IMG/VR virus record: IMGVR_UViG_3300045971_000101 | DNA: 42,460 bases | Reading direction: 5' to 3' (one strand) | Source of the DNA: a virus | Part shown: one piece after another, positions 3,240 to 42,460 of the stretch | How positions within the stretch are numbered: position 1 is the stretch's first letter | How the letters are laid out: every line of letters begins with the position of its first letter | Translations under genes and position numbers: made by a program | The notes under the pieces: generated by a model | The model's input: the letters and a program-made list of their open reading frames with translations, nothing else | Told to the model about the DNA's origin: nothing | The model's database searches: none

Positions 3240-3806
3240 ATGGCAGGAAGAATTAGATTTACCGCAGCGGAAGATGAAAGCACGTTAAAATCAGCAGATC
3301 CAAAGTTAGGACGTGCTTTTCAGGCAGGCCGTGCTGCATTGATTGTGGGTACAAATACTAACCCACATGTTGCAGGTTCTGAGACTTATTTAGCTTATGA
3401 AGCTGGGTATGCAACCGTTACCCCTGAAGGCACTTATGATGGTGGAGCTTATGCTATCCCCATCACGATGCCTAATTTGGCGGGATTGACCATTGCTCAA
3501 GCTGATGCAGCTATAACGGCTGCCGGATTAATTCCAGGAAAGATAACGGGAGCATTTGGCGTGGTTACTAGCCAATTACCAGCGGCTGCTGCGAAAGCAC
3601 AGCCTGGTGATGTAGTTACTTTTACAATTAAAGTAACTGTTCCAGACTTGACAGGTTTAACTTCAGCTGCAGCCGTAACGGCATTAACCACAGCTCATTT
3701 GATAGCAGGCGTTGTTACAGGAACTACTGGTGTGGTTACTGTTCAACTTCCGTTAGCCGCTGCATTAGCGGTTAGTGGTTCGTCTGTTGCTTATACGATA
3801 GCATAA
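3240..3806 (+). CDS. Virion-module protein with two tandem PASTA-like domains
   Basis: MPNLAGLTIAQADAAITAAGLIPGKITGAFGVVTSQLPAAAAKAQPGDVVTFTI followed by VPDLTGLTSAAAVTALTTAHLIAGVVTGTTGVVTVQLPLAAALAVSGSSVAYTIA. Both match the PASTA pattern vPdl.G.t...A...L...gL..g.v......V..Q.P.aG..v..Gs.V. Confidence 0.6.
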   Translation: MAGRIRFTAAEDESTLKSADPKLGRAFQAGRAALIVGTNTNPHVAGSETYLAYEAGYATVTPEGTYDGGAYAIPITMPNLAGLTIAQADAAITAAGLIPGKITGAFGVVTSQLPAAAAKAQPGDVVTFTIKVTVPDLTGLTSAAAVTALTTAHLIAGVVTGTTGVVTVQLPLAAALAVSGSSVAYTIA

Positions 3807-4135: not shown

Positions 4136-5161
4136 ATGGTCATAATAGCTAATTCAGAAATTGGTTATCCGGGCGCTAGTGAAACTAATGCGTTTGTCGC
4201 AAAGGAACCCTATGTGGTTAATCATTGTGGTACTCTTAGGACAATTCCCTTGGCTGGAGCATCCCGTTCACATGACTTTAGTGGGAGTGTTCCATTTATT
4301 AATCCTGTAACCAATAGAAGTGATATTCAGCAAATTCAAACGTGGTCTGGAGGGGTAGTCGCTCCCTATGATACGGGTATCACAAATAAAGGCATACCGG
4401 GTAGAGTTGATAAAACGACTTTTGGTAATGATACCGTTACCCTGATTAAATATAATAAGGGTGATGGCATTACTTTTCAAAAATGCCGATCAAAGATCAT
4501 GGCGTGGCCCATTCCAAATCGAGTTCATGCAAGATTTTATTTAGAAATGGCATTTGGTAGCAATGCTGATCCTTGGGTATTGACACCAGCAGGTATCCCA
4601 CCTGCCTCAGGTGTTTCTCCTGTGGCTTTTTGGGGAATCTCTGATGAAAACCAAAGTAGTGGGCCATTTGGACTTGAAGTTGATACGGATAATAGAGATC
4701 CTGCAAACTTAATGGTAAGTGTATTTCGACGTGTATTAACAGATGGTGTGAGTAAAGTTCGACTTTATATCATTAGAAGTGTACCAAGACATACTATGGT
4801 TCGTATTATGCTGGATATGTTCCTTGATGAGAGAGCTACCTCAGCAGGTGGTAAAGGTGCTTTTAATCTTTATTATAATGATAACTTAGTATTTTCGCAA
4901 ACTGGTCCAACTATGGCTAATATAACAGGTACTAAGAATCCGTACTGGTCAATACATACGTATTTGTGGACTGAAGCTCTGCCTTATAAATATAATCGAG
5001 CTATATTTTTTAAGACCGCTAAGATGCTAGTGTATCCGGTTAAACCTATAGCACCTCCTATTCCTCCTGTGCCTCCCGTACCTCCAGTATTAACTACAGA
5101 ACAAAGAGTAGATGCTCTAGAACATCGTGTAGATGCTATTGAAAAGGGTTTGGTGTTATGA
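4136..5161 (+). CDS. Hypothetical virion protein with a globular domain, a C-terminal Pro-rich linker and a short coiled coil
   Basis: Long ORF in the structural block. C-terminus reads PIAPPIPPVPPVPPVLTTEQRVDALEHRVDAIEKG. ATG 4136 is preferred over the track's TTG 4121. Function not recognisable. Confidence 0.5.
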   Translation: MVIIANSEIGYPGASETNAFVAKEPYVVNHCGTLRTIPLAGASRSHDFSGSVPFINPVTNRSDIQQIQTWSGGVVAPYDTGITNKGIPGRVDKTTFGNDTVTLIKYNKGDGITFQKCRSKIMAWPIPNRVHARFYLEMAFGSNADPWVLTPAGIPPASGVSPVAFWGISDENQSSGPFGLEVDTDNRDPANLMVSVFRRVLTDGVSKVRLYIIRSVPRHTMVRIMLDMFLDERATSAGGKGAFNLYYNDNLVFSQTGPTMANITGTKNPYWSIHTYLWTEALPYKYNRAIFFKTAKMLVYPVKPIAPPIPPVPPVPPVLTTEQRVDALEHRVDAIEKGLVL

Positions 5162-5793
5162 CCTATGAGGAAATAGTCAGCACCTCACTGGCTTATGCAG
5201 ATAGGCAAGATGTTGCTGTGATTAGTCGTGTCGATATATTTATGCGTATGGCTGAGTCACGTATTAACCGGCTTTTAGTTATTGAGGATATGAGTATTCG
5301 TTACATATTCTCAGAGCCTAATCCTGTTAATGGACGGTATGACTTACCAGCAGATTTTTCTGCTATTCGAGATATTGCTATAGTTGACTCACTTGATTCA
5401 AAGAATAGGCTAACGCTTTCACTGATTAACCCAGAACAAATGAATACGGCCACCAGCACAGTTAATATTGATAATAGCCTAAAACATTTTTATCAGATAT
5501 TGAATAAACAACTTGTTATACAACCTCCTGTAATTGATGGCTCTAAGTATCTCGAAATAGTTTATTACGGGAATATAGCTCCATTGACGCTTGATAATAG
5601 TACTAATTGGATATCTAACAATCATCCTGACTTATATATTGATGGCATTCTTGTTGAGATTAATGCATTTATAAAGGATGCTGAAGCGGCTGCTTTATGG
5701 GATGGGCGATTTAAACAAGTTATTGATGAATTGGCGAATGCTGACAACCTTCTTGTGTATAGCGGTTCAAGTCTTCAAACACGGGTTGGATAA
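5158..5793 (+). CDS. Putative head-tail adaptor or neck protein
   Basis: 211-aa ORF with an ATGA overlap to the upstream gene. It sits between the head genes and the fibre genes. The assignment is positional only. Confidence 0.35.
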   Translation: MTYEEIVSTSLAYADRQDVAVISRVDIFMRMAESRINRLLVIEDMSIRYIFSEPNPVNGRYDLPADFSAIRDIAIVDSLDSKNRLTLSLINPEQMNTATSTVNIDNSLKHFYQILNKQLVIQPPVIDGSKYLEIVYYGNIAPLTLDNSTNWISNNHPDLYIDGILVEINAFIKDAEAAALWDGRFKQVIDELANADNLLVYSGSSLQTRVG

Positions 5794-5794
5794 T

Positions 5795-6328
5795 ATGAAA
5801 TTTATTAAGTTGCCATCCGTAGAGTTTTTAAATAAATCATTGTCTTATAATCCTGATACTGGAAATATATTTCGTTTGACAGGAAGGTATAAGGGGGCTA
5901 TTGCTGGGGCTGTAAGTGTAAAAGGAAGACACGTTATAGATTTAGTCATTGATGGAAAAACCGTTAAATTTTATTCAGCAAGAATAGCTTGGAAAATATT
6001 TTACAAAGAAGAGCCTACTTCTCAAATTGATCATATTAATGGCGATAAGTTAGATAATAGAATTTGTAATTTAAGAGCGGCTACAAATTCAGAAAATCAA
6101 TGTAATACGTCAAAAAGAGATAACTCTAGACCGTATAAAGGTGTTTTTAAACGGCGAAACGCCAAAGGAAAGCACTATAAAGATTGGACATATCAAATTA
6201 GGTTTGATTATAAACTTTATCAGGTTTCTGGGTTCGCTACTGCTGAAGAAGCATTTGAAGCCAGATGTGCTTTTGGTAAACAATTACATGGCGATTTCTA
6301 TAACGCTGGAGGTGTATCATCGCTTTAG
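5795..6328 (+). CDS. Free-standing HNH homing endonuclease with a C-terminal AP2-like DNA-binding domain
   Basis: HNH motif HINGDKLDNRICNLRAATNSENQCN. AP2-like YKGVFKR...WTYQIRFDYKLYQVSGFATAEEAFEARCAFGKQLHGDF. ATG 5795 lies 1 nt after the stop of the adaptor gene. The segment is AT-richer than its flanks. Confidence 0.85.
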   Translation: MKFIKLPSVEFLNKSLSYNPDTGNIFRLTGRYKGAIAGAVSVKGRHVIDLVIDGKTVKFYSARIAWKIFYKEEPTSQIDHINGDKLDNRICNLRAATNSENQCNTSKRDNSRPYKGVFKRRNAKGKHYKDWTYQIRFDYKLYQVSGFATAEEAFEARCAFGKQLHGDFYNAGGVSSL

Positions 6329-8334
6329 AAACTGGCTCAACAATAGCGGCATTAAATGTTGCTAACCCTACAATTACTGACCCCGTAGGGCAAGCGGATG
6401 ACCACTTACGCCTTATAAAAACAGTATTAAAGACGACTTTTCCTGGTGCAGCAGGGACTGGTTATGCAATACCTATTACTGCAACAGAAGCTGAATTAAA
6501 CCATGTGCATGGCGTAACCAGCGATATACAGACGCAGCTTAATACTGTGGGCACCAGTAAAGCAAATCTAGCCTCGCCTACTTTTACAGGAACTGTTTCT
6601 GGTATTGATAAAACGATGGTGGGATTGCCTAATGTAGACAATACCTCAGACGCTAATAAGCCAGTTTCAACAGCTCAGCAAACTGCTCTTGATTTAAAGC
6701 AGCGTCTTAGCGGTAAAGATGCAACGGGTGGCTATGCTGGATTAACGCTATTCAATATAAACTTCAAAAATGTATTGAATACCTTTACTAGCTTCTTCAC
6801 TAATTCTAATACAGCAGCACGTACCTATGCGTTTCCTGATAAGGATATAACGGTAGCGGGACTTGATGATATTACAGGGACTAATTCAGGGATTAATACG
6901 GGCGACAGTGCTGTTAATTCTTTATATAGCGGGTTAATTACCAACGCTACACATACAGGCGACGTAACAGGGAGTAATGAATTAACGATAGCTAGCAAGG
7001 CAGTAACGCTAGCTAAAATGAATGATATGGCGACAGCCTCATTGATCTATCGTAAGACAGCTGGTGTGGGTGCTCCTGAAGTCAATTCCCTGGAAACTTT
7101 GAAAACCGACCTTACTTTAGTTAAAAGTGATGTGGGTTTAGGCAATGTTAATAATACATCGGATGCCAATAAGCCTATATCCACAGCTCAACAAGCGGCA
7201 TTAGACTTTAAGGTAGATATTACTTCTATTACTCCCGTTGCGTTTGGTGGTACTGGGCTGACAGCATTAGGGCCAGCAGGTTATGTGTTAGCGACTAATG
7301 CGGGTGTCACAGCTATGGAGTGGATAGCACCTGCATCAGGTGGTGGAGGTGGTGGCACTGGTAGTGTTACCTCTGTTAGCTGTTCAGGTGGCACGACAGG
7401 ACTCACGTTAGCGGGTGGGCCGATAACTACGACGGGCACATTCACGCTAGGCGGGTTATTAGTTTCAGCTAACGGCGGTACGGGCAATGGTTTTGCAAAG
7501 TTTACTGGGCCTACTACCGCTGAAAAGACGTTTACTTTGCCTGATGCGAATGCCACGTTGTTATATTCAGGTGGTGCATTAGGTACGCCTGTAAGTGGAA
7601 ACGCTTCTAATCTGACTAATTTTCCAACTCTTAATCAGAATACGAGTGGCACAGCGGCAGGGTTATCCACACCACTCGTTGTTGCATCAGGTGGTACAGG
7701 ATTAACGGCTCTTGGCACGAGCGCACAAGTTCTAAGGACGAATGTTGCGGGTACGGCTATGGAGTGGGCAACCGCATCAAGCGGGAGTTCAATAGGTTAT
7801 TCGACGTATGATGCTAGAAACGATTTACGAGCATTAACACCTACTGCCCATGCTTTAATTGTTGTTGAATCGTTAGGTTTATTTCAGTGGTTTTCAGGTA
7901 GCACAGAACCTGATGATGATGAAACCAGCTTTGCCACAGCATCAGGTGTTTGGCAGTTAATCGCAGCACATACAGACATGGTGTTTGCTAATTGGCTTGC
8001 AGAAGTTGATAGTTTATATAGTGCGGTAGATACGTTAACCGCATTTACGGGTAAGTTTTTACGTGGTTCTTTCAATATGACGTTGACTAGTTTGGGGGCT
8101 ATTTCTACAACAGTATTCACGGCACCAGTAGCGGGAGCTTCTATTGGGGATAGTGTTATTGTTAATCCAGGAAATGGTTTTGGTAATGATGATGGTAGTA
8201 AGGCAATTCTTAATTATAAAGCTTATGTCAGTTCAGCAAATATAGTTACTATTAATGTATGTAATTCAGCAACGGCAGCCTATGTAGCGAATATAACCCC
8301 CTCAACCTGGTCTGTTTTAGTTATCAAACAATAG
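6319..8334 (+). CDS. Tail fibre protein 1, with an apparent non-canonical ATC start. The first canonical start is GTG 6505.
   Basis: The frame is open from 6304. Residues from 6319 (IALETGSTIAALNVANPTITDPVGQADDHLRLIKTVLKTTFPGAAGTGYAIPITATEAELNHVHGV) align with the N-terminus of the 9509 fibre. GGAGG at 6308-6312 lies 6 nt upstream of ATC 6319. Fibre repeats include NTSDANKP(V/I)STAQQ.ALD.K (x2) and GGTGLTALG...AMEW (x2). Confidence 0.6.
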   Translation: MALETGSTIAALNVANPTITDPVGQADDHLRLIKTVLKTTFPGAAGTGYAIPITATEAELNHVHGVTSDIQTQLNTVGTSKANLASPTFTGTVSGIDKTMVGLPNVDNTSDANKPVSTAQQTALDLKQRLSGKDATGGYAGLTLFNINFKNVLNTFTSFFTNSNTAARTYAFPDKDITVAGLDDITGTNSGINTGDSAVNSLYSGLITNATHTGDVTGSNELTIASKAVTLAKMNDMATASLIYRKTAGVGAPEVNSLETLKTDLTLVKSDVGLGNVNNTSDANKPISTAQQAALDFKVDITSITPVAFGGTGLTALGPAGYVLATNAGVTAMEWIAPASGGGGGGTGSVTSVSCSGGTTGLTLAGGPITTTGTFTLGGLLVSANGGTGNGFAKFTGPTTAEKTFTLPDANATLLYSGGALGTPVSGNASNLTNFPTLNQNTSGTAAGLSTPLVVASGGTGLTALGTSAQVLRTNVAGTAMEWATASSGSSIGYSTYDARNDLRALTPTAHALIVVESLGLFQWFSGSTEPDDDETSFATASGVWQLIAAHTDMVFANWLAEVDSLYSAVDTLTAFTGKFLRGSFNMTLTSLGAISTTVFTAPVAGASIGDSVIVNPGNGFGNDDGSKAILNYKAYVSSANIVTINVCNSATAAYVANITPSTWSVLVIKQ

Positions 8335-19222: not shown

Positions 19223-19414
19223 TTAATCAATACTCCCATTGGATTTTAAATGTCTCCAAACAGTTCTTATTCCCCAGGTGAGCAGTCCGATTATTGCCCA
19301 TACAGGAGCAAAGTCCATTATTAAAAACCATATAAAGGCTATTAGTGCTTTTTCACTCATACTATCTAATGCATTAATAAGCTGTATCATGTCGTTCATT
19401 TGCAGTCCTCGCAA
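19223..19414 (-). CDS. Small membrane protein
   Basis: Hydrophobic core ALIAFIWFLIMDFAPVWAIIGLLTWGI. An alternative start is at 19399 (MNDMIQ...). Confidence 0.45.
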   Translation of the reverse strand: MRGLQMNDMIQLINALDSMSEKALIAFIWFLIMDFAPVWAIIGLLTWGIRTVWRHLKSNGSID

Positions 19415-19770
19415 TCTTGGTAACTATAACGCCCATTTCTCAAGGCAGGTTGGCAGAATAGTATATGCATCAGGGTTTTGCCTGAATACACGAATACTCG
19501 TTTTGGTTGTCTAACACCCCATACATCTTTTTCATTGGGCTGTTTATGTGATTTTGATCGTTTCTCCGTGGTGTTTAATTCCTCAATAAAATATTCACCT
19601 GCATTCCTATCATAGTAGATGTGATTGCCTATACGGATAGGTGATAACTGTGTATTCTTAATACAGAGCTTCCTAACCGTTTCTATGGGCAGTCTTGTTC
19701 TTTCACGTATTTCTTGTCTAGTTATATATTTTTCAGTATCCATAATAAACTCTAAAAATAAGGCGGTCAT
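19396..19770 (-). CDS. Putative HTH DNA-binding protein
   Basis: N-terminal ITRQEIRERTRLPIETVRKLCIKN resembles an excisionase/MerR-type HTH. An alternative start is at 19743. The SD and start region at 19770 is embedded in a hairpin. Confidence 0.45.
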   Translation of the reverse strand: MTALFLEFIMDTEKYITRQEIRERTRLPIETVRKLCIKNTQLSPIRIGNHIYYDRNAGEYFIEELNTTEKRSKSHKQPNEKDVWGVRQPKRVFVYSGKTLMHILFCQPALRNGRYSYQDCEDCK

Positions 19771-19844
19771 GACTCCGCCTTAATAAGTGTGCCGACAACT
19801 GAGAGACACCTAGCCGGCTTAGGTAATTTATTATTTAAAATATA

Positions 19845-19853
19845 TTATATCAT
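19845..19853 (-). promoter_or_regulatory. Extended -10 promoter element TGATATAAT on the minus strand
   Basis: Plus-strand attatatca equals minus-strand TGATATAAT (TGnTATAAT), located in the intergenic gap upstream of the HTH gene. Confidence 0.45.
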
Positions 19854-19878
19854 ATAATGATTAATAAAGATACTTATT

Positions 19879-20274
19879 TTAATACCCATTATTTTGTCTA
19901 CTTATATTCTTCCCAAATTTTATAGTATATTCACTATCTATATTATCTGGTGTTATGCCTGCTGCTAGGCATATATTAAGGCAAAAGCATAACATATCTA
20001 TAGCTTCTTCTCTTATATTGCAGTTTGATACATACCTTTTATCCGCTAAATCAGTATATTTTGTAGACCATGGCTTTAATATGGATCTATTATCATTACT
20101 AATTGCAAGTATTATTTCTGTTATTTCTTCATTAAGGTAAGATTGTTGGTTTCTTATATATTCAACTACTTCGCCACATGATAAATCTACTGAACTTGAT
20201 GGATTGTGGTGGCTACCATAGTTATCTGCAATTTTTCTTAGTAAAAGTTTTTGATTACTTAATATTTTATTCAT
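19879..20274 (-). CDS. All-alpha NTP pyrophosphohydrolase of the dimeric dUTPase / T4 gp56 dCTPase type
   Basis: KPW, REEAIDMLCFCLNI and C-terminal YTIKFGKNISRQNNGY match the pattern of the dimeric dUTPase family (E-E-x-x-D-x-x-x-F, Y-x-x-K-x-x-x-N-x-x-R-x-x-x-G-Y). ATGA overlap with the upstream hydroxymethylase gene. Confidence 0.6.
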   Translation of the reverse strand: MNKILSNQKLLLRKIADNYGSHHNPSSSVDLSCGEVVEYIRNQQSYLNEEITEIILAISNDNRSILKPWSTKYTDLADKRYVSNCNIREEAIDMLCFCLNICLAAGITPDNIDSEYTIKFGKNISRQNNGY

Positions 20275-21014
20275 AATGGTGCTTCTAATAGCCATTTACC
20301 AAAATCTGATTCAAATTTACAAGTTAATAGATCATTTACACTTGTTATAGGTGGATAATATACATATTCTTTTATATCAGCAAATATAATATGTTCTGCC
20401 ATACCGAATTGGTAATCATATATATGTAATGAATCGGCAGAAAATACAAATATGCCTGTTTTAAGCCCAAGTATTCTAGCTATCATTTCCCATAACCACC
20501 AGTATGTTGGCAAGTCTGCGCCTAGACCGAATATTGCATCGGAACTACGAAACTTAACATGTATATTTAATTTACCATCAACTATTCTAAATTGTGGACC
20601 AACAGAACATACAACATCTTTATTGCCTGTAAATAAATGTTCTTTACATAACATTGGTATTATCGCCTGTCTACTATATGGGTCATTAATTAATGTATTA
20701 ACAACCCAATCTATGCCATTTGGGAACCAATATTGTCCATAGTTAGAAAATATTTTACCATCATCTTGTACTATTTTATTCCATGTTTTTGCATACTTAC
20801 ATATTCTTGTATCATATGGGTTAGCATTTAAGTACCACTGAAATTCTCTTTTAACATAGTCAAGATTAAAGTTTCTACCTTCATAATTAGACCATGGATC
20901 AGTAATAATACCTTGGAAGTACTCTATCTCTCTTATCAGTTTACCACGAGGGCTGGTTTCTTTGCCGGTGGTAAACACTTCTGTTATTATATCTAGCACA
21001 TCATATTGTTTCAT
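20271..21014 (-). CDS. Thymidylate-synthase-fold pyrimidine hydroxymethylase, dCMP hydroxymethylase-like
   Basis: Motifs EFQWY, SNYGQYW, NDPYSRQAII, catalytic-Cys context DVVCSVGPQF, and FRSSDAIFGLGADLPTY. There is an Asp at the position where ThyA has the uracil-reading Asn, as in T4 gp42 (alignment by eye). 247 aa, compared with 246 aa for T4 gp42. Confidence 0.65.
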   Translation of the reverse strand: MKQYDVLDIITEVFTTGKETSPRGKLIREIEYFQGIITDPWSNYEGRNFNLDYVKREFQWYLNANPYDTRICKYAKTWNKIVQDDGKIFSNYGQYWFPNGIDWVVNTLINDPYSRQAIIPMLCKEHLFTGNKDVVCSVGPQFRIVDGKLNIHVKFRSSDAIFGLGADLPTYWWLWEMIARILGLKTGIFVFSADSLHIYDYQFGMAEHIIFADIKEYVYYPPITSVNDLLTCKFESDFGKWLLEAPL

Positions 21015-21487
21015 AGTCTTTCCTTTATTAAATCTATAATGTAATATAAATAATCTGTTTCATAATCATAATATATAACATCATGAAATGCCATTACTTC
21101 ATCGTATCTATCCCTTAATAGTATATTATCTTTTATTAATTGTACTTTATGAATTTCAGAATACTTATCTTTTAAAACTATATTACCAACATGGTTGCAA
21201 TATATTAAAATATACCTATCTGATAATTCTTTAGCAAGGTTATCTAAGAATCTATTTTCAATAATACGTCCATTACCATATACTTGTTCTGAAAACAGTG
21301 TGGTACGATCTAATATTACACCACTATCTATCATAGCAATTTGTGTATTTAAGCATGATAATAATTCTAATGCATTATTTGGGCCTAGTCCTGAGTGGTA
21401 ATAGGTTTTATCAAAATGTTTAGTTAATTCTTTAGCTAATGTAGTTTTACCACTACCATTCATTCCGCATACTATTATTGCTTTCAT
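21011..21487 (-). CDS. P-loop deoxynucleoside monophosphate kinase, thymidylate-kinase-like
   Basis: Walker A GMNGSGKTT and LDRTTLFSEQVYG (the DRxxxSxxxY motif of TMK-like kinases). Overlaps the downstream gene by 4 nt. Confidence 0.6.
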   Translation of the reverse strand: MKAIIVCGMNGSGKTTLAKELTKHFDKTYYHSGLGPNNALELLSCLNTQIAMIDSGVILDRTTLFSEQVYGNGRIIENRFLDNLAKELSDRYILIYCNHVGNIVLKDKYSEIHKVQLIKDNILLRDRYDEVMAFHDVIYYDYETDYLYYIIDLIKERL

Positions 21488-23056
21488 TTATACCTCTACT
21501 AATGTTATTGTACGTTTTTCATAATCCCGTATTTGTTGAAATGAATGATTCATTATTACATCTTGTATATCATATACAATTGGTTGGCCATGCACATTAA
21601 AAGAAGTATTTATAAGTATTGGAAACTTTTTAAGTATACCATGCATATAATGACCTTCGTCAATAACTTGTGGCCTACCAGAAAAAACACCACGAAGATT
21701 ATAGGCAGCACCTATCATTCTATCATTAACATAATTATATTCTAAAGCTATTATCATATGTTCGACAGACCTAATTATATTGCATGGTTGATCGAATACT
21801 TTATTATAAGTAAAACGGTTCATAACTGGGCATAGTGGCATTACTTCATGCCGCTCATTTAGATGCCCAATATATTTTGCATTACGTTCTGTTGGTAAGG
21901 CAATTGTGCTTGTATTACAATAAGCTCTCTCACCAAATTCCATTCTATCTATTACTACATTCACGATTCTATCAAAGCATAGGTGTTCATACAAATCTTT
22001 AGCAAGATGTTCTGTAAATATTAAATTACCAGCAGAAGCATATTTAGTTTTATCAATTTTTGGTCGTATGCCAAAACAAAGATCATCTTGTATTACAAAG
22101 TCATTATTATATATTTTGTATAGTCCAAGGCCAGCACCACAATCACCAGATAATGGCATTATGCATATGGAATCCACATAATGCGCCAGGTAACCGTTTA
22201 ATTGTACATTCATAAAGCAACCGCCAGCTAATAATAGATTCTTTATATTGTATTTTTGTATTATATGCCTAAATATCTGTTGTACAACTTCTTGTAATAC
22301 AGTTGCTATTATTGGTGCATCATTTTTTGTAAAATACATGGATAAAAATTCATGCACATATTTATGCATTTTAACCAATTCTGTTAAACTATAGTCATCT
22401 GCATTACGTTTATACATATTATACATAATAATACCGTATAAAACATCTATAATATAATTAGCATTATTTAAGTCTTGATGTGTAGTAGATGCTGCTAAAG
22501 CATTTAGTTTCCATTCGTCTTGGTTCATTTTAAAACCACAGAAGTCTGTAGCATATTGGTACCATAGACCTAATGAAGCAAGATAATTTTTATATGTATG
22601 TATAGGAATAGCACAATCTTCATCAACTTCATATATACTTGTGACTTCGCCAAGATTGCCAAAACCATCTGCAACTATTATATGTGTGTTTGGTTGTATT
22701 TTATCTTTTGCATAAGCCATAGCTGAATACGCATGGGCATCATGATGTGTGTATATATAATTTGATGATATGAGTTTCTTACCTTTAACAAAATCTGGAT
22801 GAAAATGTTTTTTGTTCATTTTAAACACATCACCAGTTGGTTCCCAATGTGATATGTATATAGTAACATCATCTGGTATTACATGGAACTTCTCAATTTC
22901 TTGTATTGCTTGTATAGGAAATTGAGAATCTGACTTGATTTTTGTTATTCTCTCATTTTGGTAGCCATTTACTACCTTATTATCTTGTATTGCTATTGCA
23001 CTAGAACCATGCCCTAGCGTTAATACTAATGAATCTATTGTAAGTTTATCTATCAC
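21488..23056 (-). CDS. NodU/CmcH/TobZ-family O-carbamoyltransferase
   Basis: Family-typical motifs in order: LGHGSSAIAI, ERITKIKSDSQFP..AI, HHDAHAYSA, ADGFGNLGE, SLGLWYQYATDFCGFKMNQDEWKLNALA. 522 aa. The stop abuts the kinase start codon. Confidence 0.8.
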   Translation of the reverse strand: MIDKLTIDSLVLTLGHGSSAIAIQDNKVVNGYQNERITKIKSDSQFPIQAIQEIEKFHVIPDDVTIYISHWEPTGDVFKMNKKHFHPDFVKGKKLISSNYIYTHHDAHAYSAMAYAKDKIQPNTHIIVADGFGNLGEVTSIYEVDEDCAIPIHTYKNYLASLGLWYQYATDFCGFKMNQDEWKLNALAASTTHQDLNNANYIIDVLYGIIMYNMYKRNADDYSLTELVKMHKYVHEFLSMYFTKNDAPIIATVLQEVVQQIFRHIIQKYNIKNLLLAGGCFMNVQLNGYLAHYVDSICIMPLSGDCGAGLGLYKIYNNDFVIQDDLCFGIRPKIDKTKYASAGNLIFTEHLAKDLYEHLCFDRIVNVVIDRMEFGERAYCNTSTIALPTERNAKYIGHLNERHEVMPLCPVMNRFTYNKVFDQPCNIIRSVEHMIIALEYNYVNDRMIGAAYNLRGVFSGRPQVIDEGHYMHGILKKFPILINTSFNVHGQPIVYDIQDVIMNHSFQQIRDYEKRTITLVEV

Positions 23057-23079: not shown

Positions 23080-23120
23080 TTATTATATCAAAATTTTACT
23101 ATCAAAGATACTATTATTTT
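23080..23120 (-). promoter_or_regulatory. Conserved 41-bp box (copy 1): extended -10 TGATATAAT plus an upstream 22-bp element
   Basis: ttattatatca-N7-actatcaaagatactattattt. The 22-mer at 23098-23119 is identical to 28962-28983 with the same spacing. It lies upstream of the carbamoyltransferase operon. Confidence 0.5.
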
Positions 23121-25229: not shown

Positions 25230-25712
25230 TTATTTAAAAATTTTATTTTTAAAATTTTCAAGTTCTGTAAGTCTTTTTATGATTTCCTTAATTTCTATTT
25301 CATGTTTTTTGTCGTTCTCTACAATTAGTCTTTGGCATTCTACCATTTGCATTTGAACTTCACTTAATATTACAGGTTCTGATGCGCATCTATCAATATT
25401 ATTTGTTTCACCACTTCTTATCATGAATCTAATTAGATTATATGGGTCTATTCCTTTAGGTGCATGTCTAGGTTCAGTTACATCGTCATACATACATTTG
25501 TATACTTTGCGCGCTGTTGTTAAAATGTGTGTAGCTGCTGTACCACAATTAAAGTCGTACATTATAACAACAGCTTCTTGTGGATTTTGTATACCCTCTA
25601 TATCTTTTAATGCATCCATGCATTTAATTATAGAGCCTTTAGGAACTTTACTTTTTTTAGGTTCATTAACATTAATATTGCTATTCATATTTAGTGTGAC
25701 ATTTGGACTCAT
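25230..25712 (-). CDS. Hypothetical protein
   Basis: 160-aa ORF with AAAGGTGA as SD 7 nt upstream of the ATG and a C-terminal coiled-coil-like segment. Confidence 0.55.
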   Translation of the reverse strand: MSPNVTLNMNSNINVNEPKKSKVPKGSIIKCMDALKDIEGIQNPQEAVVIMYDFNCGTAATHILTTARKVYKCMYDDVTEPRHAPKGIDPYNLIRFMIRSGETNNIDRCASEPVILSEVQMQMVECQRLIVENDKKHEIEIKEIIKRLTELENFKNKIFK

Positions 25713-25746: not shown

Positions 25747-25755
25747 ATTATATCA
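25747..25755 (-). promoter_or_regulatory. Extended -10 promoter element TGATATAAT on the minus strand
   Basis: attatatca on the plus strand, overlapping the stop codon of the VRR-NUC gene, about 35 nt upstream of the next ATG. Confidence 0.45.
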
Positions 25756-26034
25756 TCTATTCACCATAATAGATACAATAAATAAATCTATATTTTCTTT
25801 TGTGGATATTACTAAATAGTTAGGCGTGAATCTTTTTATTATTTTGCCAACTACTATTTGCTGTATATCACGCTTCTCTCTTGGTCGTTTTAATTCTATA
25901 AACCATACCTGCCTATTTATAAAGACAATACGATCTGGTACACCACGATTACCAGGTGATGACCACTTAAAAATATGACCACCACATTGGTTAATTTGTT
26001 TTATTAAATATTGTTCTATGTCTCTTTCTATCAT
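25753..26034 (-). CDS. VRR-NUC domain nuclease
   Basis: GVPDRIVF...VWFIELKRPREKRDIQQ matches the VRR-NUC core (G-x-P-D, E-x-K). Confidence 0.7.
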   Translation of the reverse strand: MIERDIEQYLIKQINQCGGHIFKWSSPGNRGVPDRIVFINRQVWFIELKRPREKRDIQQIVVGKIIKRFTPNYLVISTKENIDLFIVSIMVNR

Positions 26035-26855: not shown

Positions 26856-27121
26856 ACTACTAACCTAAATTTATTTATACGAGGCTTGTTTAACCTATTA
26901 TTTTCATCAATTATTTTTTGTAAAGTATAGCCGTACTCTATTAGTTTTTTGTCTTTCCATGGTTTTTGTGAGTATTGATAGTAATATGCTTTATTGCCAT
27001 AAACATAATGTGCTCCATAATGCGCAAAACTACATTTAGGGCAGCCATCAATATGCTTGTTACTAAATATCCATTTACAACTAGCGCATACCCTTAATTT
27101 TGCCAATTTTCTAGTCATCAA
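26852..27121 (-). CDS. Small Cys-rich (zinc-binding?) protein
   Basis: CASCKW...GCPKC. 89 aa. Overlaps both neighbours. Confidence 0.5.
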   Translation of the reverse strand: MMTRKLAKLRVCASCKWIFSNKHIDGCPKCSFAHYGAHYVYGNKAYYYQYSQKPWKDKKLIEYGYTLQKIIDENNRLNKPRINKFRLVV

Positions 27122-28889
27122 TATATTCCTTCAAATCTGAAAAGTTATAACCAGTAGAGCCATCAGATACCAGAGGGCAATCAAGGCCAGGTATTTCATC
27201 CATAGCCCATTTTAGTATCTTCATCTCTGTATCAACATCATCTGGATTACACTCTAATACCAATTCATCATGCACAGTCATTAATAGCTCGCCTTTGCGG
27301 TCTGGGTGGTACCAATACCGTATCATCGATTCTTTGGTGATGTCTGCACTGGAACCTTGTATTAATACATTACCTAATTTATAATAGAATTGCCGTCCAT
27401 CTTTAGCCTCTTCTACATCATATGATCTGCCACCCCATGTTCTGATCTTCTTACCAGATTTAGATAACTTCTCTATGTCCTTCATTAATTGTTTAAACTC
27501 TGGTAAAGCCTCATCATAAGCTCTAAAGAATGCTCTGGCTGTTTCTATAGACACATTATATTTTCTAGACATGGCATCAGGCCCACCACCGTACAATTTT
27601 AAGAAGTTAATGATCTTAACAAAGAACCGACTGACCTCTAGGCCTGTCTTTTCTTTTATTATTGCACTAACGAATGCATGTATATCTGTTTTAGGGTCAT
27701 CTTGATACTTCTTTAATATGGCACCTTCAGCATAATGCGCGGCGACACGTAATTCTTGACCAGAGAAGTCACGACGAACGAATATCTTGCCTTCGGATGG
27801 CACAATAACTGATCTAGCATGGAAGTCATCTTCTTCTAAGTTATGTTTTGGTAATTGCTGTATATTTGAAGAAAAACGGCCAGTTCTCGTGCCAAAATCA
27901 CCTTCAGATCGTGTTTGATTATAATATGGATAGAATTTATTTTTATATAGTTTTGCTGATTCGTAGAATGGCTTTATATATGTACCTACTAATTTCTGTT
28001 TTTTGCTTCTATTCTTTAAAAGAGATGATAGATTAGGGTCACTTATAATGTCTTCTATGAAGTCTTTACCAATACGAGGCTTACCAGTTTTTTCTGTGTA
28101 TTGAACCTTAGACATATATATAAGGCCTCGTTTCTGTAATGCATAAAACATACCCATAGATCCAGGTTTAGCACCATTTGAATATGCCATTATCTGCATA
28201 TCCATTAGATTAAATGCTTTATTTTCTCTGTTGTATATTTCTCCAATGTTTGGTGCTATATTAATACCTCTTTGCTCCATGTCTATAACGATTGGTAATA
28301 TACGCATCTCTCTTTGAAATGCATCATATATATTTTGTTGACCTTCTATGATTGGTGCACTAAATATTCTAGGTGCTAAAGTCTGATATAGAATATAAGT
28401 TCTGTCTGTATCTGATTCAGCATATATACCAACAAGATCACCTGGTGCTTTACATATATCTTGGCCAGGCTTAAATCTTCTGGTCATTAGCCACTTATTT
28501 AAATTATCTTGCTGTTCTGGCGGCATACCACAATATTTTTCTGTAAGTGGCTTGAGAGATAAGGAGGATTCACGAGGATCTATTAAATACATCATTATCA
28601 TAGTGTCAATGATGCGGGATGGGTCTGGAACTGATAGACCAAAATGTTCTAAAGCAACTCTCAGGTCGAATTTAGAGTTATGGCATATTATTTTATCTTC
28701 TAAGTCCCATATATGACCTAATAATTGTGCCGCCTTATCTTTTGAGCAGTTATTATTAGTTGGATGGCCCCAGGCATAATAATAAGATGGGTTATTATTT
28801 AGTTTTATTGAGACACCAACTGGTATTGGTGAATAAGGTGAGCCATTTATTATTGCATGTGTCTCAAAATCAATTGTATATAGATTCAT
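27111..28889 (-). CDS. Family A DNA polymerase with an N-terminal 3'-5' exonuclease domain
   Basis: ExoI IDFETHAI, motif A DFSGQELRVAAH, motif B RFFVKIINFLKLYGGG, motif C VHDELVLE. Confidence 0.9.
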   Translation of the reverse strand: MNLYTIDFETHAIINGSPYSPIPVGVSIKLNNNPSYYYAWGHPTNNNCSKDKAAQLLGHIWDLEDKIICHNSKFDLRVALEHFGLSVPDPSRIIDTMIMMYLIDPRESSLSLKPLTEKYCGMPPEQQDNLNKWLMTRRFKPGQDICKAPGDLVGIYAESDTDRTYILYQTLAPRIFSAPIIEGQQNIYDAFQREMRILPIVIDMEQRGINIAPNIGEIYNRENKAFNLMDMQIMAYSNGAKPGSMGMFYALQKRGLIYMSKVQYTEKTGKPRIGKDFIEDIISDPNLSSLLKNRSKKQKLVGTYIKPFYESAKLYKNKFYPYYNQTRSEGDFGTRTGRFSSNIQQLPKHNLEEDDFHARSVIVPSEGKIFVRRDFSGQELRVAAHYAEGAILKKYQDDPKTDIHAFVSAIIKEKTGLEVSRFFVKIINFLKLYGGGPDAMSRKYNVSIETARAFFRAYDEALPEFKQLMKDIEKLSKSGKKIRTWGGRSYDVEEAKDGRQFYYKLGNVLIQGSSADITKESMIRYWYHPDRKGELLMTVHDELVLECNPDDVDTEMKILKWAMDEIPGLDCPLVSDGSTGYNFSDLKEYIDD

Positions 28890-28943: not shown

Positions 28944-28984
28944 TTATTATATCATGAATTGACTATCAAAGATACTATTATTTA
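28944..28984 (-). promoter_or_regulatory. Conserved 41-bp box (copy 2): extended -10 TGATATAAT plus an upstream 22-bp element
   Basis: ttattatatca-N7-actatcaaagatactattattt. It lies upstream of the DNA polymerase gene and overlaps the stop of the preceding gene exactly as copy 1 does. Confidence 0.5.
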
Positions 28985-29755
28985 ACTCATTTTACTTCGT
29001 TTAACAGTAGATGCATCCGCCTGGTCTAATGGCACATAGTTAGATGTGTCATACGGGCCAGATACCGCAGCAGTATATTCAGTTAGAGATTTAGAAATTT
29101 TGCTGATAGTGTCTGGATCGGCTGTTGTTATGTACAGTGGTACAATACTCGGCCAGGCTGAGTCATCATCGAATGTTAGTTTGGTAACCACAGCCCATGT
29201 CGGCAGCTTGTGCACCACAGTGATATTCTTAGTGTATCTCGCATAGGCTTTTAATGAGGTCGGTGGTATATTGATGATGGCTAGATCACCAAGGTTTGGT
29301 TGGTATTGGTCATGATCCAGTTTAGTTACAGCAGCCACCAACAGACGACGACCATTACGGCATGCTTTACCTTTGCCATTCTTGGCAGAACCGAACTCAT
29401 TCTTTGGGCAGGTGTTGCATGATGCTGATTGCTTATCTGGCGAGGTCTCATGTGGTGTCATTTCACTTAAGACTGAGTTGATGGCAAAACATGCTGGTGG
29501 TGTGATAGTGTCTGGATCATAGTCACGGTCATAATATGAATGATCGTACATATCTGCTAAGATCACCACATCTAAAGTTGTGCCTAATTTTTCATCACCT
29601 ATCGAGAACTTCTTGCCTTTAATAGACATGTACGGTATTGAGGATATCTCTGCCGCACCTTGATCTTCGGCAGCCTTTGCTAATAATTGTTTAACCTCGT
29701 CTGTTAGGACGATTTGTTGGCCACCTAATTGTTGTGTTGCTACTTCAGTTGTCAT
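28982..29755 (-). CDS. Putative ssDNA-binding or recombination protein with a Cys-rich motif
   Basis: CNTCPKNEFGSAKNGKGKACRNGRRL motif and placement between the primase-helicase and polymerase genes. The family was not positively identified. Confidence 0.35.
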   Translation of the reverse strand: MTTEVATQQLGGQQIVLTDEVKQLLAKAAEDQGAAEISSIPYMSIKGKKFSIGDEKLGTTLDVVILADMYDHSYYDRDYDPDTITPPACFAINSVLSEMTPHETSPDKQSASCNTCPKNEFGSAKNGKGKACRNGRRLLVAAVTKLDHDQYQPNLGDLAIINIPPTSLKAYARYTKNITVVHKLPTWAVVTKLTFDDDSAWPSIVPLYITTADPDTISKISKSLTEYTAAVSGPYDTSNYVPLDQADASTVKRSKMS

Positions 29756-34723: not shown

Positions 34724-35020
34724 TTATTTATTGAATAAAGAATCTATAGATGATCTTTCTTCATTATCATCTATTAATGAAAAGTTTAGATTATAATTAT
34801 CGAATAATATCTGGATATCAAATTCATCTAATATTAGATCATCTAAACCTTTTAATCTTTCTTTATATTCATCCATAGATAATTCTTCGGATTGAATATC
34901 ATCTTCAAAATCGTGATAATCAATATATCTATTAATCAATCGTTCAAAATTATTAGAATCAATATATCTCATTATTGATTCATTCATCTTTATTTTAATT
35001 CTCATTTTATTATCTCTCAT
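34724..35020 (-). CDS. Highly acidic small early protein, the first gene of the minus-strand block
   Basis: 98 aa with about 25 D/E and about 13 K/R by hand count. Start choice is uncertain, with internal Met codons at 35005 and 34987. Confidence 0.5.
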   Translation of the reverse strand: MRDNKMRIKIKMNESIMRYIDSNNFERLINRYIDYHDFEDDIQSEELSMDEYKERLKGLDDLILDEFDIQILFDNYNLNFSLIDDNEERSSIDSLFNK

Positions 35021-35024
35021 TTAT

Positions 35025-35048
35025 ATTATATCATCCCATTGATGATAT
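35025..35048 (-). promoter_or_regulatory. Extended -10 TGATATAAT overlapping an 8-bp inverted repeat atatcatc-N5-gatgatat
   Basis: attatatca at 35025-35033 lies only 5 nt from ATG 35020. The inverted repeat spans 35028-35035 and 35041-35048. Confidence 0.4.
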
Positions 35049-35114
35049 TTATATTATAGATCATATTAAAATAAATATCTACTTTTATTTTATTTATTTT
35101 CATGCCATATTTAT

Positions 35115-35310
35115 ATGTTATATATCTTATAACATTAATATATTATATATCTTATAACATATCTATATCTTATAACATTAATATATTATATATATCTTAT
35201 AACATATCTATATCTTATAACATTAATATATTATATATATCTTATAACATATCTATATCTTATAACATTAATATATTATATATATCTTATAACATATCTA
35301 AATGTTATAT
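35115..35310. repeat. Tandem array with a 45-bp period: 8 direct copies of TATCTTATAACAT flanked by inverted ATGTTATA copies
   Basis: Core starts at 35123, 35148, 35166, 35193, 35211, 35238, 35256 and 35283, with spacings of 25 then alternating 18 and 27. Inverted half-sites at 35115-35122 and 35302-35309. Confidence 0.9.
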
Positions 35311-35394
35311 GGTGCAGTTATACTATATGCTGCCATAATCCTCTTTTTTGACCGGCTGGGGGAGAATGACTATGGATGTAGATGGCCACCAGTA

Positions 35395-35601
35395 TTCGTA
35401 CTGTTTTTAAGCTTTAAAAAAAAAAAAATTACTATATTACATCTTCGTACTGTTTTTAAGCTTTAAAAAAAAAAAAATTACTATAATACTTATGTATTAT
35501 AGTAATTTTTTAAGCTTTAAAAAATTACTATAATACATAAGTATTACATCTTCGTACTGTTTTTAAGCTTTAAAAAATTACTATAATACATAAGTATTAC
35601 A
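35395..35601. repeat. Nested direct and inverted repeats with two A13 tracts
   Basis: ttcgtactgtttttaagcttt+A(n)+ttactata at 35395, 35444 and 35551, plus a partial copy at 35506. A13 runs at 35416-35428 and 35465-35477. A 13-bp perfect inverted repeat attactataatac-ttat-gtattatagtaat lies at about 35477-35506. Confidence 0.85.
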
Positions 35602-35639
35602 TATTATACTTATCTAGATAAAAAAATAAAAAATATTTC

Positions 35640-35668
35640 TTGACAAACACAAATATTAAGAATATAAT
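35640..35668 (+). promoter_or_regulatory. Perfect sigma70-type consensus promoter TTGACA-N17-TATAAT upstream of terL
   Basis: TTGACA at 35640-35645, a 17-nt spacer, then TATAAT at 35663-35668. SD AGGTGA lies at about 35685-35690 and the ATG at 35694. Confidence 0.7.
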
Positions 35669-35693
35669 TAATAGATTATTAATTAGGTGAACT

Positions 35694-37100
35694 ATGTTAT
35701 ATAAGCCAACTCCTACAGGTCGTAAATTTCATTTAGCTAGAGATACTAATCTAGGTTTTGTACGTACAATCGTTGGTCCATTCGGGAGTGGTAAGAGTGT
35801 TACTTGTGTTATGGAACTACTATTGATAGCAACACATCAAGAACCAGACAATTATAACATAAGAAGAACAAAATTCGCCATAATCAGGAATACTTATCGT
35901 GAACTATTAGACACAACTATGGCTACATTTTTCACATGGATACCGAAGGAATCTGGTACGTATTCTGCCTTAAATATGACGTTTATGCTAGATCAGCAAC
36001 TACCAGACAATACTCAGATGCAGGCAGAATTCCTATTTCGAGCCTTAGATAAGCCTGATGATATTAAGAAACTACTTTCTTTAGACATCACAGCTGCCTG
36101 GATAAATGAGGTAAGAGAAATCTCCAAAACTGTATTCGACGCTGTACAAGGTCGTGTAGGACGCTACCCTCCCAAAATTCTTGGTACCTCACCAACATTT
36201 TTTGGTCTCATTACAGATACTAATGCTCCAGACTCAGACCATTGGTACTACACTTTATTCGAGGAAACATGCCCCTCAAACCATATTATATTTCATCAGC
36301 CATCAGGTCTCTCTCCTAATGCTGAAAACATAGAGAATCTACCTAAAAACTACTATCAGAACATGTCTCATGGTAAGACTAAAAACTGGATTGATGTCTA
36401 TGTCCACGGCCGGTATGGCTTTATTGCCGATGGTAGGCCGGTATGGCCAGAATATAAAGACGACACTCATTATTCTCCAATACCATATACTCCTGATCCT
36501 CGTCTACCACTGTACATTGGTATTGACTTTGGTTTAACACCTGCTGCTGTAATAGGACAGAAACTCACTTCTGGTAAATTTGTCATCTTCGACGAACTGT
36601 GTACGTGGGATATGGGTGCTGTCTCTTTTGGTCGTATACTTAAAGAAAAACTGAATCATGACTATCGCCTATTCCAAACAATAGAGATTTATGGTGATCC
36701 TGCGGGAACAGGCCGAAGCCAATCAGATGAATCTACACCATTCCAGATTTTATCCAACCAAGGTATTGACGCCTATCCTACATACACCAATGATTTCGAG
36801 ATTAGAAGGGAAGTCCCTGCCGACTATATGCTACGACTAGCATTCGATGGGTCTCCCGCATTCCAAGTCTGTTCTGGTGCCCCTACCACTCGCAAAGCAT
36901 GTGGTGGTGGATATAAGTATAAGCGTTTACAGGTCACTGGTGAGGACCGCTTCCATGACATACCGGACAAGAACAAGTACTCTCACGCTGGTGATGCACT
37001 ACAGTACATGATGCTGGGTGCAGTTGGTGGTGACCGTATCGTAGGCAGTTATGGCCATCAGCTTATAGACTACACTCAGACTAATAGGACAATCATATGA
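35694..37100 (+). CDS. terL: Terminase large subunit
   Basis: Walker A GPFGSGKS, Walker B-like ITAAWINEVRE, and nuclease-domain motifs IGIDFGLTPAA, YGDPAG and HAGDALQY. Confidence 0.9.
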   Translation: MLYKPTPTGRKFHLARDTNLGFVRTIVGPFGSGKSVTCVMELLLIATHQEPDNYNIRRTKFAIIRNTYRELLDTTMATFFTWIPKESGTYSALNMTFMLDQQLPDNTQMQAEFLFRALDKPDDIKKLLSLDITAAWINEVREISKTVFDAVQGRVGRYPPKILGTSPTFFGLITDTNAPDSDHWYYTLFEETCPSNHIIFHQPSGLSPNAENIENLPKNYYQNMSHGKTKNWIDVYVHGRYGFIADGRPVWPEYKDDTHYSPIPYTPDPRLPLYIGIDFGLTPAAVIGQKLTSGKFVIFDELCTWDMGAVSFGRILKEKLNHDYRLFQTIEIYGDPAGTGRSQSDESTPFQILSNQGIDAYPTYTNDFEIRREVPADYMLRLAFDGSPAFQVCSGAPTTRKACGGGYKYKRLQVTGEDRFHDIPDKNKYSHAGDALQYMMLGAVGGDRIVGSYGHQLIDYTQTNRTII

Positions 37101-42313: not shown

Positions 42314-42460
42314 ATGAACGAAATTAATGTCACAACCGACTCTACCCCACAGGCGACCGGAAGTGTAACAGACCAGATATCAGCGTTGTTGATGGAAGAA
42401 CATAATCCACAACCGATGAAGCAAGAGAAAGACCCTAACGCATATAAACCTAAAGCATCA
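42314..42460 (+). CDS. 5' end of the scaffolding protein gene, continuing at base 1 and 128 through the circular junction
   Basis: ATG 42314 is in frame with the 53..1120 ORF through the 127-bp overlap. Confidence 0.6.
   Translation, partial: MNEINVTTDSTPQATGSVTDQISALLMEEHNPQPMKQEKDPNAYKPKAS
42334..42460. repeat. End overlap, second copy of bases 1-127
   Basis: Exact 127/127 identity with the window start. Confidence 0.97.

Follow-up and report, generated by a model that had tools for sequence, protein, structure and literature searches.

We analyzed the IMG/VR virus record IMGVR_UViG_3300045971_000101, a stretch of 42,460 nucleotides that we refer to as the window, with a focus on a four-gene operon that is predicted to modify the cytosines of this phage genome. 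The operon consists of four contiguous open reading frames (ORFs) on the minus strand at 19879-23056, coordinates that agree with those in a preliminary description of this DNA. The genes are as follows:

21488-23056, minus strand, O-carbamoyltransferase (CT), 522 amino acids, GTG start
21011-21487, minus strand, P-loop kinase, 158 amino acids
20271-21014, minus strand, thymidylate synthase (TS)-fold enzyme, 247 amino acids
19879-20274 (131 amino acids) or 19879-20295 (138 amino acids), minus strand, gp56-type pyrophosphatase

The TAA stop codon of the CT gene abuts the ATG of the kinase gene, the kinase and TS genes overlap in an ATGA, and no intergenic space is left within the operon. The junction between the TS and pyrophosphatase genes is also an ATGA if the latter starts at 20274, or a 25-nt overlap if it starts at 20295. 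The same four genes, in identical form, are found on an independent contig of 3.4 kb (L004) from a public run, where the 131-amino-acid pyrophosphatase is called from the start at 20274. The abutting TAA/ATG and the ATGA overlaps confirm the translational coupling that had been claimed for these genes.

The CT protein matches both PF02543 (Carbam_trans_N; 4e-22) and PF16861 (Carbam_trans_C; 3e-18) in Pfam, as well as phrog_1601. Its closest solved structures are NovN, GdmN, and TobZ, with NovN as the best solved relative at 84 bits. It shares with these enzymes the Kae1-like and YrdC-like fold, a His/Asp metal site, and the residues of the carbamoyl-phosphate/ATP site, so that the two Pfam domains and the conserved metal- and nucleotide-site residues uphold its initial assignment as a NodU/CmcH/TobZ-type O-carbamoyltransferase. 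The metal-site residues H16, H104, H108, D130, and D305 and the residues R402, R461, and S485 of the YrdC site are invariant in its clade. The conserved ‘ALGxRS’ motif of the NodU/CmcH/TobZ family, in contrast, reads ‘AYCNTS’ in the window CT. The predicted substrate differs as well, being the hydroxymethyl group of a nucleobase rather than the antibiotic or Nod-factor hydroxyl of TobZ, NovN, and GdmN.

A phage enzyme of this kind has been characterized biochemically. Yang et al. (2021; eLife 10:e70021, PMC8670742) showed in vitro that a purified phage carbamoyltransferase converts 5-hydroxymethylcytosine (5hmC) to 5-carbamoyloxymethylcytosine (5cmdC) with carbamoyl phosphate and ATP. Their enzyme reached near 100% on single-stranded DNA (ssDNA) oligonucleotides, less on double-stranded DNA, and approximately 60% on 5-hydroxymethyl-dCTP (5hmdCTP), and it had no activity on 5-methyl-dCTP (5mdCTP) or 5-hydroxymethyl-dUTP (5hmdUTP). 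In the same study, cytosine-modified viral contigs were enriched in carbamoyltransferase genes, which lay beside TS homologues and genes for PRA-PH-type pyrophosphohydrolases. The preliminary description had left it undecided whether this exact pathway had been characterized experimentally; for its key enzyme, it has. In BLASTP, the window CT aligned with the characterized enzyme over its full length at 34% identity (254 bits, E 4e-82), whereas it scored only 61-77 bits against cyanophage carbamoyltransferases.

Yang et al. (PMC8670742) further reported three positions, TobZ W408, G421, and R423, at which conservation differs between carbamoyltransferases associated with modification and the remaining ones. 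In a HMMER alignment to GdmN, with the TobZ mapping inferred from GdmN numbering, these positions corresponded to the W of ‘GW’ and to the G and R of ‘ALGHRS’. Under this mapping, the three positions are V/C/T in the window CT and I/C/T in the Yang et al. enzyme, and the signature is kept across the CT clade, with Cys in 67 of 76 sequences and Thr in 75 of 76. Phage carbamoyltransferases without a linked TS gene (S-SSM7, C48C1, and XacN1) have G and R at the signature positions, as do NovN and GdmN. By sequence, the window CT falls within the clade of the only 5hmC carbamoyltransferase that has been characterized biochemically. The chemistry of carbamoyl transfer, shown by others in vitro for this 34%-identical orthologue, would by analogy apply to the window enzyme.

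It is conceivable that the CT mainly acts on the hydroxyl group of another compound, for instance a sugar or secondary metabolite, and that the DNA ends as 5hmC or is only partly carbamoylated. The family is substrate-diverse, as the closest solved structures NovN, GdmN, and TobZ illustrate, and cyanophage auxiliary carbamoyltransferases presumably act on substrates of this type. Phage carbamoyltransferases without a neighboring TS gene also exist, for example those of S-SSM7, C48C1, and XacN1 beside glycosyltransferases, and the identity to the assayed enzyme is only 34%. However, the score of the window CT against the 5hmC enzyme is three to four times that obtained with these other phage carbamoyltransferases, and it has the Cys/Thr signature of the clade, which the outgroups lack. 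It is also encoded in a coupled operon with hmC-making genes, a linkage kept in 70 of 80 related loci (described below). We therefore regard a different substrate as unlikely.

The enzyme that would supply the hydroxymethyl group is encoded in the same operon, separated from the CT gene by one gene. This TS-fold enzyme matches PF00303 (6e-18), and its translation contains all of the motifs first quoted for it (EFQWY, SNYGQYW, NDPYSRQAI, DVVCSVGPQF, and FRSSDAIFGLGAD). Its best solved relatives are the MilA CMP hydroxymethylase (8e-14) and the T4 dCMP hydroxymethylase (dCH; 3e-11), with ordinary thymidylate synthases close behind. The catalytic Cys136 aligns with Cys148 of T4 dCH, Asp167 aligns with Asp179 of T4 dCH, which is the position of Asn177 in Escherichia coli, and Ser137 stands at the position of E. 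coli His147. Positions 177 and 147 were reported to discriminate modified from unmodified contigs (PMC8670742). All ThyA equivalog models of NCBIfam scored far below their cut-offs (the best reached 53 bits, where the cut-off is 327), and this, together with Asp and Ser in place of Asn177 and His147, excluded a canonical ThyA. With Asp as the base-reading residue, as the preliminary description had read it, we rejected a 5-hydroxymethyluracil (5hmU) pathway, to which an Asn would have pointed. The further statement of that description that the enzyme aligns better with T4 gp42, the dCH, than with ThyA is only marginally true by score (46 bits versus 40-44.5 bits), and it is the discriminating residues that carry the argument.

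An Asp at the Asn177 position specifies cytosine and not a hydroxymethyl outcome, and replacing Asn177 of ThyA by Asp yields a dCMP methylase (cited in PMC8670742). Combined with the closeness of the bit scores (46 for T4 dCH, 40-44.5 for ThyA), this would be compatible with a dCMP methyltransferase that gives the genome 5-methylcytosine, as in Xanthomonas phage XP12, beside a CT unrelated to DNA modification. However, the two best solved relatives, MilA and T4 dCH, are both hydroxymethylases, and the PF00303 match ends at profile position 220 of 266, leaving the C-terminal segment of TS unmatched. Moreover, the gene is coupled to a CT from a clade whose assayed member needs a hydroxyl acceptor and is inactive on 5mdCTP, and we consider a methyltransferase highly improbable. 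Its pairing with an O-carbamoyltransferase and its relationship to MilA and T4 dCH suggest that the TS-fold enzyme makes a hydroxymethyl product.

The pyrophosphatase scored 22.7 bits against PF08761 (dUTPase_2), next to a gathering cut-off of 22.9, and also matched phrog_173 and phrog_18650; a sequence search of the PDB gave no match. A tblastn search against phage genomes matched 893 records, and the best listed matches were mostly T-even-type myoviruses in which the gene is annotated as dCTP pyrophosphatase (31-35% identity over 93% of the length). Against gp56 of phage NC-G, BLASTP gave 31% identity (E 6e-21), and the acidic motifs line up (NEEITE with DDEFRE and EEAIDML with FEMIDIL). The NC-G match is flanked by a primase/helicase gene on one side and by soc-, srh-, and modA-like genes on the other, surroundings that we take to be the T4 gene-56 neighborhood. 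Judging from these alignments, the window pyrophosphatase is a genuine T-even gp56 homologue, and the tblastn and NC-G results bear out its earlier placement in the dUTPase/gp56 dCTPase superfamily.

The kinase has no curated family model and no Pfam family of its own, and single-sequence searches with it returned only P-loop noise. A profile of 25 family members, however, matched SPbeta YorR in the PDB over its full length (E 4e-15), followed by thymidylate kinases (TMKs; 2e-6 to 4e-5) and deoxynucleoside kinases (dNKs), and 6 of the 25 members individually matched Pfam Thymidylate_kin. The AlphaFold model, built from a 67-sequence alignment, had a pLDDT of 91.8, and its best Foldseek matches were YorR (TM 0.78) and then dozens of TMKs and dNKs. 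Invariant residues are G8, G13, K14, D60, R61, S66, E67, and Y70, and they include those of the P-loop and of a DR..SE..Y motif. Both the profile and the predicted structure thus point to a TMK/dNK P-loop fold, in agreement with the TMK-like dNMP kinase that had been proposed. No chain of T4 gp1 (1DEK) was among the best 60 of 287 profile matches at E up to 1, and the kinase is therefore analogous to gp1 and not orthologous.

By analogy with T4, the window kinase would be a 5-hydroxymethyl-dCMP (5hm-dCMP) kinase. Another role for a kinase family without a curated model, in which the substrate assignment is indirect, would be phosphorylation of the 5-hydroxymethyl group in DNA, with a final base different from 5cmdC. 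In the 5hmU pathways of thymidine hypermodification, P-loop kinases reportedly phosphorylate this group. The nearest folds of the window kinase are, however, nucleotide and nucleoside kinases (YorR, TMKs, and dNKs), and the TMK-like DR..S..Y motif is conserved. In addition, the carbamoyltransferase of Yang et al. needs no phosphorylated intermediate, and a dedicated 5hm-dCMP kinase is logically required by the pathway, as in T4. We therefore consider a DNA kinase very unlikely. Independently of its role, a homologue of the TMK-fold kinase was recognized in Xanthomonas phage Xp15, where gp37 (7112-7594 of locus L001; HMM E 3e-53) is publicly annotated as a ‘putative DNA polymerase subunit’, likely a misannotation judging from this match.

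We further investigated the distribution of these genes in related loci. A scan of IMG/VR with the single CT protein gave no match, and an alignment was therefore used as the query. This yielded 76 CT loci from viral metagenomes, which together with three loci of cultured phages and one short contig of the same phage made up a set of 80. An Asp-type TS homologue was located within 7 kb of the CT gene in 70 of the 80 loci, and most of the others were short or truncated contigs. The Cys and Asp residues were present in 80 of 82 TS copies, with residue triads of C-T-D in 75, C-S-D in 3, and C-H-N in 2 extra copies; the two Asn-bearing copies are second, ordinary ThyA genes. Three rounds of hidden Markov model searches identified a P-loop kinase at the same position beside the TS gene in 69 of the 80 loci, a count that merges two sequence types, EGxDxxGKST (~160 amino acids, the window type) and AFSGGCxSGKTT (~210 amino acids). 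The preliminary description had proposed a search for co-occurrence in related genomes, and these counts for the TS and kinase genes provide it. The modal gene order was CT, a MazG/PRA-PH-like pyrophosphohydrolase of ~130 amino acids, kinase, and TS.

The cassette is also present in cultured phages. A CT of ~33% identity in the same neighborhood (helicase, CT, kinase, TS, and ligase) was found in Xanthomonas phage Xp15 and in Acinetobacter phages HHU4, MD-2021a, and Effie, and six Bacteroides fragilis phages, including BF503P2, likewise carry a ~33%-identical CT and the cassette neighborhood. The gp56-type pyrophosphatase of the window, in contrast to the MazG/PRA-PH type of most loci, was present in only four other related loci. 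An hhalign comparison of the two families gave an E of 1e-3 and a probability of 21%, and we treated them as different families of one superfamily that are at best very distantly related. On this comparison, the predicted dCTPase of the window lineage is a non-orthologous replacement.

Two variations of the gene content were observed in these loci. Eight Bacteroides-phage-like loci (L003, L017, L041, L043, L047, L049, L054, and L056) each contain two Asp-type TS paralogues, and in these loci a ~210-amino-acid AAA_28-like P-loop protein (AFSGGCxSGKTT...IDELR) lies between the CT gene and the first TS gene, replacing the window-type kinase. In 24 related loci, a protein of ~275 amino acids with four invariant cysteines (C89, C113, C116, and C132; phrog_27714), here called the Cys4 protein, is encoded directly upstream of CT, as in gp40 of Xp15 (4162-4992 of locus L001). 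In the window, its gene lies at 28982-29755 on the minus strand, 6 kb from CT and upstream of the polymerase gene. The Cys4 protein had no match in Pfam or the PDB, its model had a pLDDT of 69, and its structural relatives in the BFVD list are uncharacterized proteins of many phages (KPP25, phiCbK, GMA6, and BCD7). We considered it as a potential fifth component of the cassette but did not retain it as such; it is probably a replication protein.

Based on these data, it is quite probable that the four genes are transcribed as a single unit, whose products would replace genomic cytosine by 5cmdC. The first step would be hydrolysis of dCTP (and dCDP) to dCMP by the gp56-type pyrophosphatase, which would remove the canonical substrate and feed the next step. 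The TS-fold enzyme, through Cys136 and Asp167, would then add the one-carbon unit of methylene-tetrahydrofolate to C5 of dCMP, and hydration of the exocyclic methylene would give 5hm-dCMP. The TMK-fold kinase would convert this to the diphosphate, and the host nucleoside-diphosphate kinase would complete 5hm-dCTP. Finally, the YrdC-like C-terminal domain of CT would make carbamoyl-adenylate from carbamoyl phosphate and ATP, and the metal-containing Kae1-like N-terminal domain would move the carbamoyl group onto the 5-CH2OH. Every cytosine would then bear a bulky carbamate, which presumably guards the DNA against restriction and other DNA-targeting defenses. Genomic 5cmdC, as the preliminary description had predicted, is well supported and is the exact in vitro product of the Yang et al. 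enzyme.

Several points weigh against this interpretation. The presence of 5cmdC in this phage, which we still hold to be likely, is predicted from the genes, and the CT is only 34% identical to the assayed enzyme. In the literature searched, we found no report of 5cmdC in cultured-phage virions. A hydroxymethylase and a dCMP methyltransferase both have the Asp and are indistinguishable by sequence, and the kinase, which among the matches listed is not an orthologue of T4 gp1, is assigned its substrate indirectly. Palindromic 6-mers containing C or G are moderately under-represented (median observed/expected, 0.64), which neither supports nor excludes full modification.

The acceptor of the carbamoyl group could be either 5hm-dCTP before polymerization or 5hmC in ssDNA at the replication fork. 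We tentatively suggest, as a possibility of less than even standing, that carbamoylation takes place at the nucleotide level, so that the kinase and CT supply 5-carbamoyloxymethyl-dCTP and the family-A polymerase of the phage incorporates it directly. If so, 5cmdC would be a pre-replicative hypermodification bulkier than hmC, the first such for cytosine, and the TMK-fold kinase would be a dedicated modified-dCMP kinase whose partners have been swapped between two unrelated types of dCTPase.

The proposed pathway resembles the hmC pathway of T4 in its logic, in which dCTP is destroyed, dCMP is hydroxymethylated and phosphorylated, and the 5-CH2OH group is decorated. The window pyrophosphatase is a homologue of gp56, and the TS-fold enzyme has the Cys and Asp of gp42. 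The window kinase, however, is YorR/TMK-like and not an orthologue of gp1, and the decorating enzyme is an O-carbamoyltransferase dependent on ATP and carbamoyl phosphate, whereas T4 uses UDP-glucose alpha- and beta-glucosyltransferases. No glycosyltransferase was found with Pfam and/or PHROGs among 39 ORFs of the window, a scan outside which lay approximately six plus-strand ORFs of 90-160 amino acids in the structural module. The genomes also differ, as the window represents a 42-kb podovirus-like phage and T4 is a T-even myovirus.

The system described by Yang et al. (2021; PMC8670742) agrees with the window operon in the two-domain architecture and clade-signature residues of CT, in the predicted product, and in the linkage of CT to an Asp-type TS homologue and an all-alpha NTP pyrophosphohydrolase. 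It differs in that the window CT is a divergent orthologue with predicted activity, that the window pyrophosphatase is of the gp56/dUTPase_2 type instead of the PRA-PH/MazG type found in the paper and in most related loci, and that the window lacks a dCMP deaminase. A TMK-fold kinase does not appear among the co-occurring Pfam domains quoted from the paper. The conservation of the kinase in the related loci suggests that it is a fourth component of the cassette that domain-based association missed.

We also examined the promoter-like elements and base composition around the operon. The conserved promoter box noted in the preliminary description proved to be real: the 30-nt pattern GTATCTNT-N13-TGATATAAT has four exact matches, all on the minus strand, where 0.10 would be expected by chance:

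28946-28975, minus strand, box copy upstream of the DNA polymerase gene
25747-25776, minus strand, box copy upstream of ORF 25230-25712
23082-23111, minus strand, box copy upstream of CT, reading GTATCTTT-N13-TGATATAAT with an extended -10 (TGnTATAAT)
19844-19873, minus strand, box copy 6 nt past the pyrophosphatase stop, at the downstream operon boundary

A wider 47-nt repeat around the box forms the repeat family D5, of which the four copies were aligned. A scan for the sigma-70 consensus gave no enrichment over shuffles (57 versus 50.6 +/- 7.7), and the reading of the box as a putative promoter therefore rests on its repetition. Because the operon is flanked by two box copies, the four genes are a discrete unit that shares the promoter-like element of the replication genes. 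Downstream of the 19844-19873 copy, a GC-rich hairpin followed by a T-run at 19759-19782 (minus strand) is terminator-like and overlaps the first ATG of ORF 19396-19770. Translation of this ORF may begin at an ATG further downstream, and the hairpin may function as a leader or attenuator structure.

The operon had been placed in the most AT-rich part of the genome. An AT-rich block with a GC of 0.29-0.31 does extend broadly around it, but the kilobase richest in AT is 35001-36000, with a GC of 0.24. Within this kilobase, the region 35093-35605 contains a 45-nt tandem array of 4.2 copies with 97% match, followed by three to four copies of a unit of ~47-53 nt that has TTACTATAATAC at its end. 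The region lies just upstream of the terminase gene, between the divergent modules, and we consider it a candidate origin that contains iterons and repeated promoters.

The phage genome is complete, with an exact direct repeat of 127 nt (1-127 = 42334-42460) that leaves a unique part of 42,333 bp. The repeat is either the overlap of a circular assembly, 127 being a k-mer length commonly used by assemblers, or else a short terminal repeat. The plus strand carries genes for the terminase, portal, scaffold, major head, SU10-type adaptor, tail, and internal virion proteins, and the minus strand those for a primase, a family-A DNA polymerase (27111-28889), an exonuclease, an SNF2-type helicase, and an ATP-dependent ligase. 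No tRNA genes were found in the 42-kb genome. When the operon and 18 kb of structural-module sequence were compared by megablast with 50,697 phage records, no match was obtained, and there is no close cultured relative among them. Within the virion structural module, the gene at 3240-3806 (plus strand) encodes a PASTA-domain protein (Pfam 5.6e-15), an unusual site for a peptidoglycan/beta-lactam-binding domain. An HNH endonuclease gene at 5678-6328 (plus strand) overlaps the 3' end of the SU10-type adaptor gene at 5158-5793, and in Acinetobacter phage HHU4 (L002), homologues of this endonuclease are encoded beside the exonuclease.

The window operon is a new, divergent example of an already published modification system, and its value is incremental in that it adds a complete genome in which the pathway is encoded in compact form by four genes with clean boundaries. 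The cultured carriers of the cassette, namely Xp15, HHU4/Effie/MD-2021a, and BF503P2 and its relatives, are phages in which 5cmdC in virion DNA would be directly demonstrable. Such a modification may bear on how these phages face restriction, CRISPR, and modification-dependent nucleases. The enzymes are also of biotechnological interest, as carbamoylation shields cytosine derivatives from APOBEC deamination.

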